IMG/VR virus record: IMGVR_UViG_2713897190_000004
Reading direction: 5' to 3' (one strand)
DNA length: 6,794 bases
Origin: a virus
Lineage: Duplodnaviria; Heunggongvirae; Uroviricota; Caudoviricetes
Below the pieces are notes generated by a model that was given only the letters and a program-made list of their open reading frames with translations, searched no databases and was not told the origin of the DNA. This document shows positions 386 to 6,794 of this stretch, piece after piece. Numbering within the stretch: the first letter of the stretch is position 1; the number at the start of each line of letters is the position of its first letter. The position numbers and the translations under genes are program-made.

Positions 386-596
386 GTCTCATACTCCGGT
401 TAACGATGAAACCATGCAGGAGATTAACACTCTGCTGATCGCCCTGGATAAAACATGGGATGACGACTTATTGCCGCTCTGTTCCCAGATATTTCGCCGC
501 GACATTCGCGCATCGTCAGAACTGACACAGGCCGAAGCAGTGAAAGCTCTTGGATTCCTGAAACAGAAAGCCACTGAGCAGAAGGTGGCAGCATGA
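386..596 (+). pseudogene. bet: 3' fragment of bet (Red-beta single-strand annealing protein); the N-terminal roughly 190 codons are missing.
   Basis: The translation ...[67 protein letters not shown] matches the C-terminus of lambda Bet as I recall it. Its stop overlaps the exo start (ATGA at 593..596), as in lambda. The same frame has a stop at 291..293, and residues encoded by 294..385 do not resemble Bet, so the gene is truncated or replaced at about 380..390. Confidence 0.75.
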
Positions 597-1273
597 CACC
601 GGACATTATCCTGCAGCGTACCGGGATCGACGTGAGAGCTGTCGAACAGGGGGATGATGCATGGCACAAATTACGGCTCGGCGTCATCACCGCTTCAGAA
701 GTTCACAACGTGATAGCAAAACCCCGCTCCGGAAAGAAATGGCCTGACATGAAAATGTCCTACTTCCACACCCTGCTTGCTGAGGTTTGCACCGGTGTGG
801 CTCCGGAAGTTAACGCTAAGGCGCTGGCTTGGGGAAAACAGTACGAGAACGACGCCAGAGCCCTGTTTGAGTTTACTTCCGGCGTGAATGTTACTGAATC
901 CCCGATCATCTATCGCGACGAAAGTATGCGCACCGCCTGCTCTCCCGATGGTTTATGCAGTGACGGCAACGGCCTTGAGCTGAAATGCCCGTTTACCTCC
1001 CGGGATTTCATGAAGTTCCGGCTCGGTGGTTTCGAGGCCATAAAATCGGCTTACATGGCCCAGGTGCAGTACAGCATGTGGGTGACGCGAAAAGATGCCT
1101 GGTACTTTGCCAACTATGACCCGCGTATGAAGCGTGAAGGACTGCATTATGTCGTGGTTGAGCGGGATGAAAAGTACATGGCGAGTTTTGACGAGATGGT
1201 GCCGGAGTTCATCGAAAAAATGGACGAGGCACTGGCTGAAATTAGTTTTGTATTTGGGGAGCAATGGCGATGA
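593..1273 (+). CDS. exo: Lambda exonuclease (Red-alpha, 5'-3' dsDNA exonuclease), full length, 226 aa.
   Basis: 226-aa [57 protein letters not shown]..., which is near-identical to lambda Exo as I recall it. SD-like AAGGTGG lies upstream, and the start overlaps the stop of the bet fragment. Confidence 0.95.
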
Positions 1274-1452
1274 CGCATCCTCACGATAATATCCGGGTAG
1301 GCGCGATCACTTTCGTCTACTCCGTTACAAAGCGAGGCTGGGTATTTCCCGGCCTTTCTGTTATCAGAAATCCACTGAAAGCACAGCGGCTGGCTGAGAA
1401 GATAAATAATAAACGGGAGGCGGTATGCACAAAGCATCTCCTGTTGAGTTAA
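1264..1452 (+). CDS. Small hypothetical protein of the lambda pL operon, orf60a-like.
   Basis: 62-aa ORF immediately after exo, with its ATG overlapping the exo stop region. Position and size match lambda orf60a. Function unknown. Confidence 0.7.
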
Positions 1453-1616
1453 GAACGAGTATTGAGATGGCACATAGCCTTGCTCAAATTGGAGTCAGGT
1501 TTGTGCCAATACCAGTAGAAACAGACGAAGAATTTCATACGTTAGCCACATCCCTTTCACAAAAGCTGGAAATGATGGTGGCGAAAGCAGAAGCAGATGA
1601 GAGAGACCAGGTATGA
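1425..1616 (+). CDS. Small hypothetical protein of the lambda pL operon, orf63-like.
   Basis: 63-aa ORF overlapping the previous gene by 28 nt, as the lambda orf60a/orf63 pair does. GGGAGG lies upstream of the ATG. Confidence 0.7.
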   Translation: MHKASPVELRTSIEMAHSLAQIGVRFVPIPVETDEEFHTLATSLSQKLEMMVAKAEADERDQV

Positions 1617-2006: not shown

Positions 2007-2228
2007 ATGGCGGACATCATTGATTCAGCATCAGAAATTGAAGAATTACAGCGCAATACAGCAATAAAAATGCGTCGTCTGAACTACCAGACTATATCCG
2101 CCACTCATTGTTGTGAGTGTGGCGATCCCATAGATGAACGAAGACGCCTGGTCGTTCAGGGTTGTCGGACTTGTGCAAGTTGCCAGGAGGATCTGGAGCT
2201 TATCAGTAAACAGAGAGGTTCGAAGTGA
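2007..2228 (+). CDS. TraR/DksA-family C4 zinc-finger protein (lambda orf73-like); likely binds the RNA polymerase secondary channel.
   Basis: 73-aa ORF with the motif CCECGDPIDERRRLVVQGCRTCASC (CxxC-17-CxxC), the pattern seen in F-plasmid TraR and the DksA C-terminus. An SD-like AGGGA lies upstream. Confidence 0.85.
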   Translation: MADIIDSASEIEELQRNTAIKMRRLNYQTISATHCCECGDPIDERRRLVVQGCRTCASCQEDLELISKQRGSK

Positions 2229-2989
2229 GCGAAATTAACTATCAGGCACTGCGTGAAGCGGCAGAAAAAGCAACGTGTGGTGAGTGGTCGCTCGAATATG
2301 GAGAGAGCCGATTTGATGGTGATTATGCGCTAATTCATCGTGAAGTTGCTGGATATATTCCCATTTGCAGAATTGAAGGAGCGCATCCAGAAAGCGGTTT
2401 CGATGAAGATTTCCAAATGGAACAGCAGGCCAATGCTGAATTCATCGCCGCAGCCAATCCGGCTACTGTGCTGGCACTGCTGGATGAACGGGAAAGAAAC
2501 CAGCAATACATAAAACGCCGCGACCAGGAGAACGAGGATATTGCTCTTACTGTTGGGAAGCTGAGAGTTGAGCTTGAGGAGACAAAATCAAAACTCAACG
2601 AGCAGCGTGAGTATTACGAAGGTGTTATCTCGGATGGGGGTAAGCGTATTGCTGAACTGGAGAAAAGCGAAGAGCAACTCATTAACGAGCGTGACCATGC
2701 TGAATCTGCTTTAGCAGATATGTACTTTGCAGCAACCGGGGATGAGCCGGAGTGGAGCAACTGGTTCGGCTTTTCAGATGCTGTCGATGCCGTGGTTGAC
2801 AGAATTGCTGATTTAGAAGCTAAACAGCCATCACCAGTAGTACCGGAAGGACTGGTTAAAGCAGTGCGCTTCTATGAACAGGTTAAGCGTGAAAATCCAC
2901 CAGTCGAAACAGAGGCATGGAAAGACGCTATTGACTGGGTGCTCAAAGAGTCTTGTCAGGCTGTAAACATTGATACCAATGGAGATTGA
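2225..2989 (+). CDS. ea22: Ea22-like protein, 254 aa, with a coiled-coil-prone central region.
   Basis: GTG start overlaps the stop of the TraR-like gene (GTGA at 2225..2228), with GAGGT 6 nt upstream. The N-terminus MSEINYQALREAAE... and the central block LLDERERNQQYIKRRDQENEDIALTVGKLRVELEE..KSKLNEQREYYEGVISDG match lambda Ea22 as I recall it; the rest diverges. Confidence 0.75.
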   Translation: MSEINYQALREAAEKATCGEWSLEYGESRFDGDYALIHREVAGYIPICRIEGAHPESGFDEDFQMEQQANAEFIAAANPATVLALLDERERNQQYIKRRDQENEDIALTVGKLRVELEETKSKLNEQREYYEGVISDGGKRIAELEKSEEQLINERDHAESALADMYFAATGDEPEWSNWFGFSDAVDAVVDRIADLEAKQPSPVVPEGLVKAVRFYEQVKRENPPVETEAWKDAIDWVLKESCQAVNIDTNGD

Positions 2990-2990
2990 T

Positions 2991-3245
2991 ATGAGCACTT
3001 TTACCGACAAAGAACTGATTAAAGAAATCAAAGAGCGTATCAGCAGTTTGGATGTGCGAGACAATGTTGAGCGCCGGGCTTATGAAATTGCTCTGGCATC
3101 GCTGGAAGAGAATCCGGTGGCATGGCTGCATTCAGACAATGGCTTAGGTATTCCGGCAATAACGAGGAGTAAAAACATTGCTGACAGTTGGTTATCAAAG
3201 GGTTGGTATGTTCAGCCGCTATATATGCCAAGCCAGTGCCAGTAG
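2991..3245 (+). CDS. Hypothetical protein, 84 aa as read; probably the N-terminal piece of a frameshifted paralog of the 4004..4744 gene.
   Basis: ATG at 2991 with GGAG 6 nt upstream, 1 nt after the ea22-like stop. Its N-terminus MSTFTDKELIKEIKERISSL...RRAYEIALASLEENP parallels the N-terminus of the 4004 product (MTTITKERIELFIKNPL...MELARIALASLEREQ). Confidence 0.55.
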   Translation: MSTFTDKELIKEIKERISSLDVRDNVERRAYEIALASLEENPVAWLHSDNGLGIPAITRSKNIADSWLSKGWYVQPLYMPSQCQ

Positions 3246-3262
3246 TACCTGAAGAAAAACCA

Positions 3263-3796
3263 ATGCCTAACCCTCTTAGCATGTACGCGGTCGATGCTGT
3301 TGCCGCTATTGCAGAGGTGAGAGGCTGGAACGCCTGCCGCGCGGCTATGCTTCATGCCGGAAACTTTCGGGAAAACGCGAATTCGTCAACCAATAATTTT
3401 CGGGAAATTTCGGAAACGTCAACCAACTCTCCGGTAATTCCTGGTGAGGTGTTGTCCGCAATCCTGAAATTTGCCAGAGTTCGTGCTGATTTCGATGATT
3501 TTGACGGCGACAGGCGAGGTATCGGTGATTGTCTGGATGAGGCTGAGCAAGAGCTTATCGTTACCATTAACAAATATGCCAGTCAGTTGGCAGCAGAACC
3601 GATAGCGACTAATGACGTTCGAGAGCAGCAGACAGCCGTTCCGCCAGTTCCTGTAATACAGGCTGATGTCGCGCAAGCAATTGAAAATCTCAGGCAGAAG
3701 TTAGTGGAATGCAATCGCTATAACTACTGCGCAGATGCAGTTAAGGGCGTAGAGGATGCCTGCCACGCTGCCATGCTTCAGGGAAAAAGAGAGTGA
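3263..3796 (+). CDS. Hypothetical protein; probably the C-terminal piece of the same frameshifted gene. Start uncertain (frame open from 3185; ATG at 3263 or 3281).
   Basis: ORF in the frame of 3188..3796. No convincing SD precedes any candidate start, unlike every other gene in the operon. Contains NSPVIP, encoded by an 18-bp stretch identical to one in the 4004..4744 gene. Stop at 3794..3796 lies 1 nt before the next start. Confidence 0.5.
   Translation: MPNPLSMYAVDAVAAIAEVRGWNACRAAMLHAGNFRENANSSTNNFREISETSTNSPVIPGEVLSAILKFARVRADFDDFDGDRRGIGDCLDEAEQELIVTINKYASQLAAEPIATNDVREQQTAVPPVPVIQADVAQAIENLRQKLVECNRYNYCADAVKGVEDACHAAMLQGKRE
3362..3427 (+). repeat. Imperfect 33-bp (11-codon) tandem duplication inside the 3263..3796 coding region.
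   Basis: Two adjacent units, aactttcgggaaaacgcgaattcgtcaaccaat and aattttcgggaaatttcggaaacgtcaaccaac, encoding NFRENANSSTN and NFREISETSTN in frame. Confidence 0.6.
3424..3441 (+). repeat. 18-bp exact direct repeat (copy 1), caactctccggtaattcc, encoding NSPVIP.
   Basis: Identical 18-mer found again at 4411..4428 inside the paralogous gene. Confidence 0.8.
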
Positions 3797-3797
3797 T

Positions 3798-4007
3798 ATG
3801 GCTATTGCCGCAAGTTACACCATGCATCTCTATTGTGATTGTCGCCAGTGTACGGAAGGTGTATATCCAGTGCCAGACTTCGGTGAGTATATCGGTACGT
3901 CATGGTCTGGTTGTGCAAAAGAGGCCCGTAAAGACGGGTGGCGAATAAGCAAAGACAAAACACGTACTTTTGCGCCCGGGCATAAAGTTTTGAGGATTAA
4001 CACATGA
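3798..4007 (+). CDS. Small cysteine-rich protein, 69 aa, possible Zn-binding; function unknown.
   Basis: ATG at 3798 with AGAGAG upstream. Translation MAIAASYTMHLYCDCRQCTEGVYPVPDFGEYIGTSWSGCAKEARKDGWRISKDKTRTFAPGHKVLRINT has a C-x-C-x2-C cluster plus a distal Cys and His. Its stop overlaps the next start (ATGA at 4004..4007). Confidence 0.6.
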   Translation: MAIAASYTMHLYCDCRQCTEGVYPVPDFGEYIGTSWSGCAKEARKDGWRISKDKTRTFAPGHKVLRINT

Positions 4008-4744
4008 CCACTATTACCAAAGAACGTATTGAATTGTTCATTAAAAATCCGCTTGAAAACGGGCTTACTCGTGGCGAACAAATGGAACTAGCACGAATTG
4101 CACTGGCATCACTGGAACGCGAACAGATTCGCCACGAGCATGCCAAATGGTCTGACTCCACATTTGGCTGCGTTGGCCCCATTGGTCCACTGAAACACCT
4201 CTCAAAAGAGGCACTGGAAGCCGCAGCCGAACCAGACGATCTTAGCGAGTGGGCTGATATGCAGTTTCTGTTGTGGGATGCACAGCGCCGTGCTGGCATC
4301 AGCGATGCTGAAATTACCGTTGCTATGGAAGATAAATTGAAGATCAACATGGAGCGCCAGTGGCCTGAGCCAAAAGATGGTGAGCCTCGCTTGCACATTA
4401 AAGAACCCGGCAACTCTCCGGTAATTCCGGATGGTTTATCCACGGTATGCGCTGAGGCTTATCAGGTTGTAGGAGTTATGGCAGATGCGCTTGGTGTATT
4501 CGGTGATGCAGCAGTACAGAAAGTTCTGGATAACCTGTCACAGCAAAAACTTGTTCACAGAGATGTGCTGCCGTTCTCGCTTCCGGTAACTCCGGATGGT
4601 TGGGTTATGGTTCCTAAACAGGTAACGCCGGAAATCAGCAACGCGATAAACGTTGTGGGTCAACGCTGTACATGCGGAAATTGCTCTCAGCGGTTGTGGG
4701 ATTTATTACTCGACGCCACACAGCAAGGAGTTAACCGTGGCTAA
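4004..4744 (+). CDS. Hypothetical protein, 246 aa; intact paralog of the 2991..3796 locus.
   Basis: ATG at 4004 with GAGGA 7 nt upstream. Shares the IALASLE N-terminal motif and the NSPVIP motif with the upstream locus. C-terminus contains CTCGNC. Confidence 0.75.
   Translation: MTTITKERIELFIKNPLENGLTRGEQMELARIALASLEREQIRHEHAKWSDSTFGCVGPIGPLKHLSKEALEAAAEPDDLSEWADMQFLLWDAQRRAGISDAEITVAMEDKLKINMERQWPEPKDGEPRLHIKEPGNSPVIPDGLSTVCAEAYQVVGVMADALGVFGDAAVQKVLDNLSQQKLVHRDVLPFSLPVTPDGWVMVPKQVTPEISNAINVVGQRCTCGNCSQRLWDLLLDATQQGVNRG
4411..4428 (+). repeat. 18-bp exact direct repeat (copy 2), caactctccggtaattcc, encoding NSPVIP.
   Basis: Identical to 3424..3441. Flanking bases differ on both sides. Confidence 0.8.
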
Positions 4745-5021
4745 CCTGCAACTTGCCGTTAAAGGTGAATACTTCGATGCCATGATTCGCGGAGAGAAAA
4801 CGGAAGAGTATCGCCTGTGTAATGACTACTGGAAAAAGCGCCTCGTTAACCGTAAGCATGACCGCCTGATTATCACAAAGGGATATCCGAAGCGCGACGA
4901 TTCCAGCCGCAGAGTTGATGTTCCGTATGACGGATATGAAGTGAAGACAATCACACATCCGCACTTCGGTGATAAACCGGTAAAGGTATACGCGATAAAG
5001 GTAAATATCGGCACTGAATAA
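4737..5021 (+). CDS. ASCH/PUA-like domain protein (putative), 94 aa from the GTG start.
   Basis: GTG at 4737 preceded by AAGGAG (4725..4730) at 6-nt spacing, overlapping the stop of the previous gene. The N-terminal LAVKGEYFDAMIRGEKTEEYR resembles the G-x-K-T-x-E-x-R signature of ASCH-domain proteins (for example E. coli YqfB), from memory. Confidence 0.6.
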   Translation: MANLQLAVKGEYFDAMIRGEKTEEYRLCNDYWKKRLVNRKHDRLIITKGYPKRDDSSRRVDVPYDGYEVKTITHPHFGDKPVKVYAIKVNIGTE

Positions 5022-5046
5022 CAATCCGCACAACACAAGGTCAAGA

Positions 5047-5286
5047 ATGTTCAGAGTGATTTACCCTAACACCTGGTACGTCGACCACCACGGCACTCCC
5101 TGCAAAATCCTGCGTTCCACTCACAACAAAGTTCACTACATCCGAAAAGGCAGAACATGTATCGCCAGCATGTTCCGCTTTAATCATGACTTTGAACCTG
5201 TGAATAAAGCTGACGCAGATCGGATAGCTGAAGAGATCGAAACAGCAGAACACATTAAGAAGTTACGTGCCATACGCAGGAAATAG
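5047..5286 (+). CDS. Hypothetical protein, 79 aa, basic C-terminus.
   Basis: ATG at 5047 with AAGG 6 nt upstream. Last gene before the AT-rich spacer that precedes xis. No recognisable motif. Confidence 0.55.
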   Translation: MFRVIYPNTWYVDHHGTPCKILRSTHNKVHYIRKGRTCIASMFRFNHDFEPVNKADADRIAEEIETAEHIKKLRAIRRK

Positions 5287-5425
5287 AAAAATTGATAAAT
5301 TCAATACTGCATTTCTCAGCATTAAATTTATCTCTATGACCAGTCAAGAGATGTACCTGCCATGAGCTTAATATCATGTCAGATATATCGGTCACAAACT
5401 CCCTCAGCAGCTAAGAGGAGGACAA

Positions 5426-5662
5426 ATGTCTCGACTAATCACTTTACAGGACTGGGCTAAAGAAGAATTTGGGGACTTAGCACCAAGTGAGCGAGTTCTG
5501 AAAAAATACGCGCAAGGGAAAATGATGGCCCCACCCGCTATAAAAGTTGGTCGCTACTGGATGATTGACCGAAATTCCCGTTTTGTAGGAACGCTTGCAG
5601 AACCGCAACTCCCAATAAACGCAAACCCAAAACTCCAACGGATAATCGCTGATGGCTGCTAG
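5426..5662 (+). CDS. xis: Excisionase (lambda Xis-family winged-helix recombination directionality factor).
   Basis: 78-aa ORF with a strong SD (TAAGAGGAGG) upstream. Sequence ITLQDWAKEE...APPAIKVGRYWMI parallels lambda Xis (LTLQEWNARQ...FPPPVKDGREYLF). The 3' end overlaps the int start by 11 nt. Confidence 0.85.
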   Translation: MSRLITLQDWAKEEFGDLAPSERVLKKYAQGKMMAPPAIKVGRYWMIDRNSRFVGTLAEPQLPINANPKLQRIIADGC

Positions 5663-6794
5663 ACCCCGATCTCACAAAATCTCTATACCCAATTTATATT
5701 GCAAATTAGATAAGCGAACCGGAAAGGTATATTGGCAATACAAACATCCACTATCCGGTCGTTTTCATAGCTTAGGAACTGATGAGAATGAAGCAAAACA
5801 AGTTGCTACTGAAGCAAATACCATTATTGCTGAACAACGTACCCGACAAATATTAAGCGTCAATGAGCGTCTAGAAAGAATGAAAGGCAGGCGCTCAGAC
5901 ATTACGGTGACAGAATGGCTTGATAAATATATTTCTATCCAGGAGGACAGGCTGCAACATAATGAACTAAGACCCAACTCCTATCGGCAAAAAGGCAAAC
6001 CCATTCGTCTTTTCCGTGAGCATTGTGGAATGCAACACCTCAAGGATATTACCGCACTTGATATTGCCGAAATAATTGATGCTGTAAAGGCTGAAGGTCA
6101 TAACAGGATGGCGCAAGTCGTGAGAATGGTGTTGATCGACGTCTTCAAAGAAGCACAACACGCAGGACATGTTCCGCCAGGATTTAACCCAGCGCAGGCA
6201 ACAAAACAACCGCGAAATCGAGTAAACCGCCAAAGATTATCACTGCCCGAATGGCAGGCAATATTTGACAGCGTAAGCAGACGGCAGCCCTATTTAAAAT
6301 GCGGGATGCTACTTGCTCTTGTCACTGGACAACGTTTAGGCGATATCTGCAATTTGAAATTCTCTGATATCTGGGACGACATGTTGCACATTACTCAGGA
6401 AAAAACCGGTTCAAAACTTGCTATTCCGCTTAACCTGAAATGCGATGCTCTGAATATTACCCTTCGTGAAGTTATATCTCAGTGCAGGGATGCTGTTGTT
6501 AGTAAATATCTGGTCCATTACCGTCACACTACCTCTCAAGCAAACAGAGGAGACCAGGTGTCTGCAAATACTCTTACAACGGCTTTTAAAAAGGCCAGGG
6601 AAAAATGTGGCATAAAATGGGAGCCAGGAACTGCGCCCACATTTCATGAGCAGCGATCTCTGTCAGAACGGTTATATCGGGAACAGGGTCTGGATACGCA
6701 AAAGTTGTTAGGTCATAAATCCAGAAAAATGACCGACCGATACAATGATGATCGTGGTAAAGACTGGATTATCGTAGATATCAAAACAGCATAG
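5652..6794 (+). CDS. int: Tyrosine integrase, lambda Int family, full length 380 aa; divergent from lambda Int.
   Basis: Clear similarity to lambda and HK022 Int over the catalytic domain: LVTGQRLGDICNLKFSDI, KTGSKLAIPL, PTFHEQRSLSERLY, LLGHKSRKMTDRYNDDRGKDW. The catalytic R, K, H-x-x-R, H and Y positions are all present. The stop codon is the last 3 nt of the window. Confidence 0.95.
   Translation: MAARPRSHKISIPNLYCKLDKRTGKVYWQYKHPLSGRFHSLGTDENEAKQVATEANTIIAEQRTRQILSVNERLERMKGRRSDITVTEWLDKYISIQEDRLQHNELRPNSYRQKGKPIRLFREHCGMQHLKDITALDIAEIIDAVKAEGHNRMAQVVRMVLIDVFKEAQHAGHVPPGFNPAQATKQPRNRVNRQRLSLPEWQAIFDSVSRRQPYLKCGMLLALVTGQRLGDICNLKFSDIWDDMLHITQEKTGSKLAIPLNLKCDALNITLREVISQCRDAVVSKYLVHYRHTTSQANRGDQVSANTLTTAFKKAREKCGIKWEPGTAPTFHEQRSLSERLYREQGLDTQKLLGHKSRKMTDRYNDDRGKDWIIVDIKTA

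Follow-up and report, generated by a model that had tools for sequence, protein, structure and literature searches.

The window, that is, the whole stretch of 6,794 nucleotides analysed here, belongs to a Caudoviricetes virus record (IMGVR_UViG_2713897190_000004), and its positions 4000-5700 matched the lambdoid Jouyvirus Escherichia phage ev017 with 100% identity. The gene order in the window is that of the leftward early operon of phage lambda together with its non-essential 'ea' region (Table 1). The gene studied here, which encodes a small ASCH-fold protein, lies between an EaA-like gene with a dATP/dGTP pyrophosphohydrolase domain and a DUF4222 gene. In a consensus scan, neither a promoter-like site nor a plus-strand terminator was found between the ASCH gene and its upstream neighbour. 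Because of the lambda-like gene order and the lack of a separating signal, we infer on good grounds that the gene belongs to the early operon, as the preliminary description of this DNA had it, and the gene would be co-transcribed with that leftward (pL-type) operon.

Some features of the surrounding genes were also recorded. As listed, the ORF at 3188-3796 has about 40-60 nt in common with its neighbours, and its start in RefSeq is later, at approximately 3281. The C-terminal half of the EaA-like protein contains Cys and has no domain assigned. On the minus strand of the gap between DUF4222 and xis, positions 5294-5332 carry a 16-pair AT-rich inverted repeat with a T-run after it, which was terminator-like in the consensus scan. 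Outside the window, at 7909-8061 of phage ev017, a fragment of isocitrate dehydrogenase lies just past int, with sitA/ABC-transporter genes further on, suggesting that ev017 integrates at icd, as phage 21 does, and carries host-derived cargo.

Table 1 Genes and sequence features of the window, with positions counted from its first nucleotide
Feature	Position	Strand	Remarks
End of RecT-like gene		+	First in the window gene order
exo	593-1273	+	
DUF1382	1425-1616	+	
DksA-type zinc finger	2007-2228	+	
Ead/Ea22-like gene	2225-2989	+	
Three consecutive ORFs	2970-3245, 3188-3796, 3756-4007	+	Without Pfam or PADLOC match
EaA-like gene	4004-4744	+	dATP/dGTP pyrophosphohydrolase (PF04447/DUF550) domain, residues 42-137, Pfam E 8e-42
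Shine-Dalgarno AAGGAG	4725-4730	+	6 nt 5' of the GTG start; read from the sequence
Overlap of ASCH start and upstream-gene end	4737-4744	+	8 nt; upstream stop TAA 4742-4744
CDS of ASCH-fold protein	4737-5021	+	94 residues; stop codon included
ASCH signature GxKxxExR	4791-4814	+	Codons 19-26, GEKTEEYR (G19, K21, E24, R26); conservation in 105 relatives
W32...R35 on helix 2	4830-4841	+	Codons 32-35; W32 100%, R35 91%; subfamily-specific
G-Y-P motif, end of strand 3	4881-4889	+	Codons 49-51; G49 97%, Y50 98%, P51 97%
HPHFG loop between strands 5 and 6	4956-4970	+	Codons 74-78; H74 92%, F77 93%, G78 90%
DUF4222	5047-5286	+	Followed by xis and int

The ASCH gene starts with a GTG codon at 4737, and its translation, VANLQLAVKGEYFDAMIRGEKTEEYRLCNDYWKKRLVNRKHDRLIITKGYPKRDDSSRRVDVPYDGYEVKTITHPHFGDKPVKVYAIKVNIGTE*, comprises 94 codons and the stop. 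The protein opens with VANLQLAVKGEYFDAMIRGEKTEEYRL and closes with KVNIGTE, and the segment quoted in the preliminary description, LAVKGEYFDAMIRGEKTEEYR, corresponds to residues 6-26. A GGAGG or AAGGAG sequence stands at equal spacing in the homologues of the gene. RefSeq holds exactly the same CDS under the name "ASCH domain-containing protein", both in ev017 (YP_009909598.1) and in E. coli CFT073 (WP_001304460.1), and the protein matched PHROG 625, a phage family with no assigned function, with an E-value of 5.3e-49, residues 1-93 being aligned with positions 1-93 of the 98 in the profile. Across 59 distinct close homologues, 369, 153, and 652 differences were counted at codon positions 1, 2, and 3, respectively, and every complete homologue ORF was unbroken, with 93 or 94 codons. 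The start with its ribosome-binding site, the RefSeq CDS, the PHROG 625 match, the codon-position bias, and the unbroken homologues bear out the ORF proposed earlier, which is clearly a genuine conserved coding gene and no chance ORF. It is highly improbable that the ORF is spurious or mis-started, with a 122-codon frame from TTG at 4653, or no protein at all, as the true product: that TTG is in frame and some database entries for the product are longer (108-138 aa), but the Shine-Dalgarno spacing fits the start at 4737, the short form is conserved across the family from residue 1-4 onwards, any 5' extension falls within the preceding gene, and the codon at the GTG position is GTG in 33 and ATG in 26 of the 59 homologues, the ATG at this very position therefore excluding the longer TTG start.

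The gene is widespread. DNA similar to it was present in 1587 of 5426 complete E. coli genomes (approximately 29%), at up to five sites in a single genome, and a protein-level search recovered its product from 332 phage records, with Stx1- and Stx2-converting phages, virulent Jersey-like Salmonella phages, Klebsiella and Erwinia phages, and P2-like Ralstonia phages among the carriers. When the family profile was searched against 1.8 billion cluster representatives, 1361 clusters (50% identity) were retrieved at E ≤ 1e-3 and 447 at E ≤ 1e-10.

The surroundings of the gene varied. In 80 related viral loci, which are relatives of 88-99% identity found with closer alignment, the flanking genes were mosaic, and the dATP/dGTP pyrophosphohydrolase gene was upstream in only five; the other upstream genes were DksA-like, a small unknown gene, or encoded Ea22/DUF551-type modular proteins. 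Many unrelated upstream genes in these loci (Ea22-like, DUF551-type, and DUF550-type) end in a shared ...(P)QEVNRG* tail, which corresponds to 4720-4744 of the window, contains the ribosome-binding site of the ASCH gene, and includes the 8-nt overlap with its start. The tail has the look of a conserved site of mosaic recombination at which translational coupling is preserved regardless of the upstream gene, and the overlap is likely both the coupling site and a conserved mosaic junction. In other phages, a homologue adjoined replication genes (primase/helicase) in a Jersey-like Salmonella phage, immediately preceded a large replication-region ORF in Ralstonia phage RSA1, and had a C5-methylase nearby in an Erwinia phage. 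In a Pectobacterium prophage (4001-4300 of the locus), the homologue was located away from int, in the nin region, where it occupied the O/P-Q interval with Dam, NinE, NinF, and NinG nearby. The ASCH gene moves between both early accessory regions of lambdoid phages.

No conserved gene partner was found in the 80 related loci and the other phages. A two-enzyme nucleotide pathway with the upstream pyrophosphohydrolase was considered and, in view of the mosaic flanks and the varied settings, therefore rejected. No fused domain above threshold was detected in the longer family members, and the PADLOC-DB defence models gave no family at E ≤ 0.01 for the ASCH protein or six neighbours. The database proteins P0121, P0122, and P0153 carry Ea22-like N-terminal parts fused in frame to a full ASCH domain via an 'RRRRLT' linker, and the fusions stem either from real deletions or from gene calls extended across the overlapping frame. 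A clade-specific prophage segment of E. coli O157:H7 clade 8 encodes an 'ASCH domain containing protein' directly beside an N-acetyltransferase (PMC8553066), and the pairing of an ASCH protein with an acetyltransferase has been reported as a setting of ac4C-type chemistry (bioRxiv 10.64898/2026.08.01.741249).

The preliminary description had called the product a putative ASCH/PUA-like domain protein and named a Pfam search as one way to check the call. The ASCH family (PF04266) was indeed the sole Pfam family matched, with an E-value of 0.029 over residues 6-48 only, but the score of 15.5 bits fell below the gathering cut-off of 21.2 bits. In a diverse alignment of 105 relatives, which were 38-76% identical to the window protein, 52 matched PF04266 at E ≤ 0.1 and one at E ≤ 5e-4, which is roughly the threshold level. 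The DUF3850 profile (PF12961) weakly matched 18 of the 105 relatives, with a best E-value of 8.5e-4, and gave no match for the window protein itself. NCBIfam likewise yielded no match for the ASCH-fold protein, and searches of the PDB by sequence, using the single protein and the profiles of 31 and 105 sequences, returned no ASCH protein and chance-level matches only. When the family profile was aligned by hhalign with YqfB, the N-terminal motif was in register at a non-significant probability below 1%; with EOLA1, the motif was again in register and residues 1-26 aligned without gaps, also without significance. The sequence evidence for ASCH membership is therefore graded here as weak, and the window protein is a divergent ASCH subfamily outside the curated Pfam boundary.

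In the ASCH superfamily of Iyer, Burroughs and Aravind (2006), according to its description in PMC6803910, a GxKxxExR signature in the alpha1-beta2 segment forms the ligand cavity. The window protein carries this signature in the alpha1-beta2 region as G19-E-K21-T-E-E24-Y-R26, and among the 105 relatives G19 was conserved in 92%, K21 in 100%, E24 in 99%, and R26 in 98%. G66 was a further subfamily-specific conserved position in the same alignment, beyond those listed in Table 1. The protein is basic, with a pI of 9.35 (family median 9.4).

An AlphaFold2 model built from 31 close relatives had a pLDDT of 82, and the model built from the 105-sequence alignment reached a pLDDT of 93.8 and a pTM of 0.82. 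The predicted topology was b1(3-8)-a1(10-17)-b2(23-27)-a2(30-36)-b3(43-48)-b4(59-63)-b5(67-72)-b6(82-88), that is, a PUA-like beta-barrel in which a single helix separates the first two strands and the GEKTEEYR motif sits between helix 10-17 and strand 23-27. The last four strands account for the beta-rich region that had been expected after the N-terminal segment. In structural comparison, solved ASCH domains matched the model best; Foldseek gave the same ranking with weak E-values (best 0.011), and YTH and EVE domains were also among the matches. Judging from the model, the fold is a PUA-like barrel of the ASCH type without a close solved relative, and the predicted structure speaks for ASCH more clearly than the sequence does. 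The earlier ASCH/PUA-like call is supported by fold and motif, and not at the curated threshold of Pfam.

We consider it probable that the gene product is a stand-alone, minimal ASCH-superfamily (PUA-like) protein of the phage-borne PHROG 625 subfamily with a nucleobase- or nucleotide-binding K21/E24/R26 pocket, a judgement that covers the identity and the pocket and carries no specific substrate with it. The nucleobase bound in this pocket would either be flipped out of an RNA or DNA strand or belong to a free nucleoside or nucleotide, and the bound moiety may then be hydrolysed there. We infer that some of the subfamily-specific conserved residues complete the predicted pocket, the candidates being the aromatics and the histidine Y12/F13, W32, Y50, H74, and F77. 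In YqfB and EOLA1, both characterised stand-alone ASCH proteins, a K/(T or E)/R pocket deacetylates N4-acetylcytidine (PMC9599836; bioRxiv 10.64898/2026.08.01.741249). Because this pocket performs amide hydrolysis and K21, E24, and R26 are near-invariant in the phage family, a small hydrolase or 'eraser' with an N-modified base as its substrate is ranked first among the activities, as a tentative choice by analogy. A simple role in ac4C salvage is unattractive, since the host E. coli has its own YqfB.

Close behind the hydrolase in likelihood, and equally tentative, is a reader or binder without catalytic activity. The barrel would then only bind RNA, single-stranded DNA, or a modified base, such as methylated adenine in DNA, and might act by occupancy, through masking, competing, or recruiting, without any chemistry. 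PUA-superfamily domains (YTH, EVE, SRA, and ASCH) widely serve as modification sensors (PMC12191111), and bacterial ASCH proteins of the TRIP4-like clade are tied to base-modification and restriction-modification contexts with modified adenines (bioRxiv 10.64898/2026.08.01.741249); the basic character of the phage protein and the YTH and EVE domains among the structural matches also favour a reader. However, the near-invariant K21, E24, and R26, which are catalytic in EOLA1 and YqfB, fit chemistry at least equally well, and reader domains are usually fused to effectors, whereas the phage ASCH protein stands alone and has no conserved partner.

That the barrel is PUA-like and not ASCH, being instead EVE-, YTH-, or DUF3850-like with an octapeptide that matches by convergence or chance, seems improbable to us. 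DUF3850, a PUA-like domain that is frequent among phages and prophages and often fused to ParB-CTPase folds, resembles the phage ASCH protein in being phage-associated, small, and PUA-like, but no ParB fusion was seen among the relatives of the latter. Slightly less probable still is that the phage protein, like the ASCH protein of Zymomonas mobilis (ZmASCH), is a ribonuclease specific for single strands, which would degrade host or phage RNA early in infection: ZmASCH has about 145 residues against 94, the small ASCH proteins are structurally more similar to the model than ZmASCH is, and no residue-level correspondence with its active site was established.

Within the ASCH assignment that we prefer, a more far-reaching proposal, which we regard as a long shot, is that PHROG 625 is a phage-specific ASCH enzyme that removes or hydrolyses an infection-relevant base modification or modified nucleotide, its K21/E24/R26 pocket being extended by the subfamily-invariant W32, Y50, and H74. 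Equally speculative candidate targets would be an acylated or alkylated base of host tRNA or rRNA, a DNA mark recognised by a modification-dependent defence, or an immune signal derived from a nucleotide. If this is true, lambdoid, Stx-converting, Jersey-like, and P2-like phages would carry a small enzyme of a new class, expressed early and serving counter-defence or host takeover.

The ASCH domain assignment is already public in RefSeq and nothing in the architecture is unusual, and the finding adds little beyond that public annotation. No experimental work on the PHROG 625-type ASCH subfamily was found in the literature. The activity of this protein, once known, would annotate thousands of prophage genes, and a phage protein with the pocket of nucleoside deacetylases, the sole characterised stand-alone ASCH proteins, is a cheap and well-defined target for an enzyme screen.

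Among known systems, small ASCH proteins with solved structures (Enterococcus faecalis NP_814290.1, 3iuw; Pyrococcus PH0355, 2z0t; and PF0470, 1xne) share only 16-23% identity with the phage protein, without a sequence-level match, and no mechanism transfers from the likeness because their functions are also not established. YqfB (PDB 9kyf and 9kyh), which the preliminary description had offered as an example, is an N4-acetylcytidine amidohydrolase whose catalytic residues are Lys21, Thr24, Arg26, and Glu74 (PMC9599836). Of these residues, K21 and R26 are kept in the phage protein, but Thr24 is replaced in the phage family by the 99%-conserved Glu, and no equivalent of Glu74 could be assigned in the phage protein, which does not show the YqfB-type residue set. 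YqfB is also a chromosomal housekeeping gene in E. coli, whereas the phage ASCH gene is a mobile accessory. Position 24 is Thr or Ser in the YqfB clade, whereas Glu24 is absolutely conserved in, and diagnostic of, the TRIP4-like clade (bioRxiv 10.64898/2026.08.01.741249); with Glu at this position, YqfB is thus the wrong sub-type as an exemplar, and the phage pocket is of the EOLA1/TRIP4 type. In human EOLA1, a deacetylase of free N4-acetylcytidine, K21, E24, and R26 form the catalytic pocket (bioRxiv 10.64898/2026.08.01.741249), and EOLA1 and the TRIP4-like clade (PDB 5y7d, 6kir, and 9kyk) share with the phage protein the same pocket residues in the same numbering, G19, K21, E24, and R26, including the conserved Glu that precedes the motif Arg by two residues.
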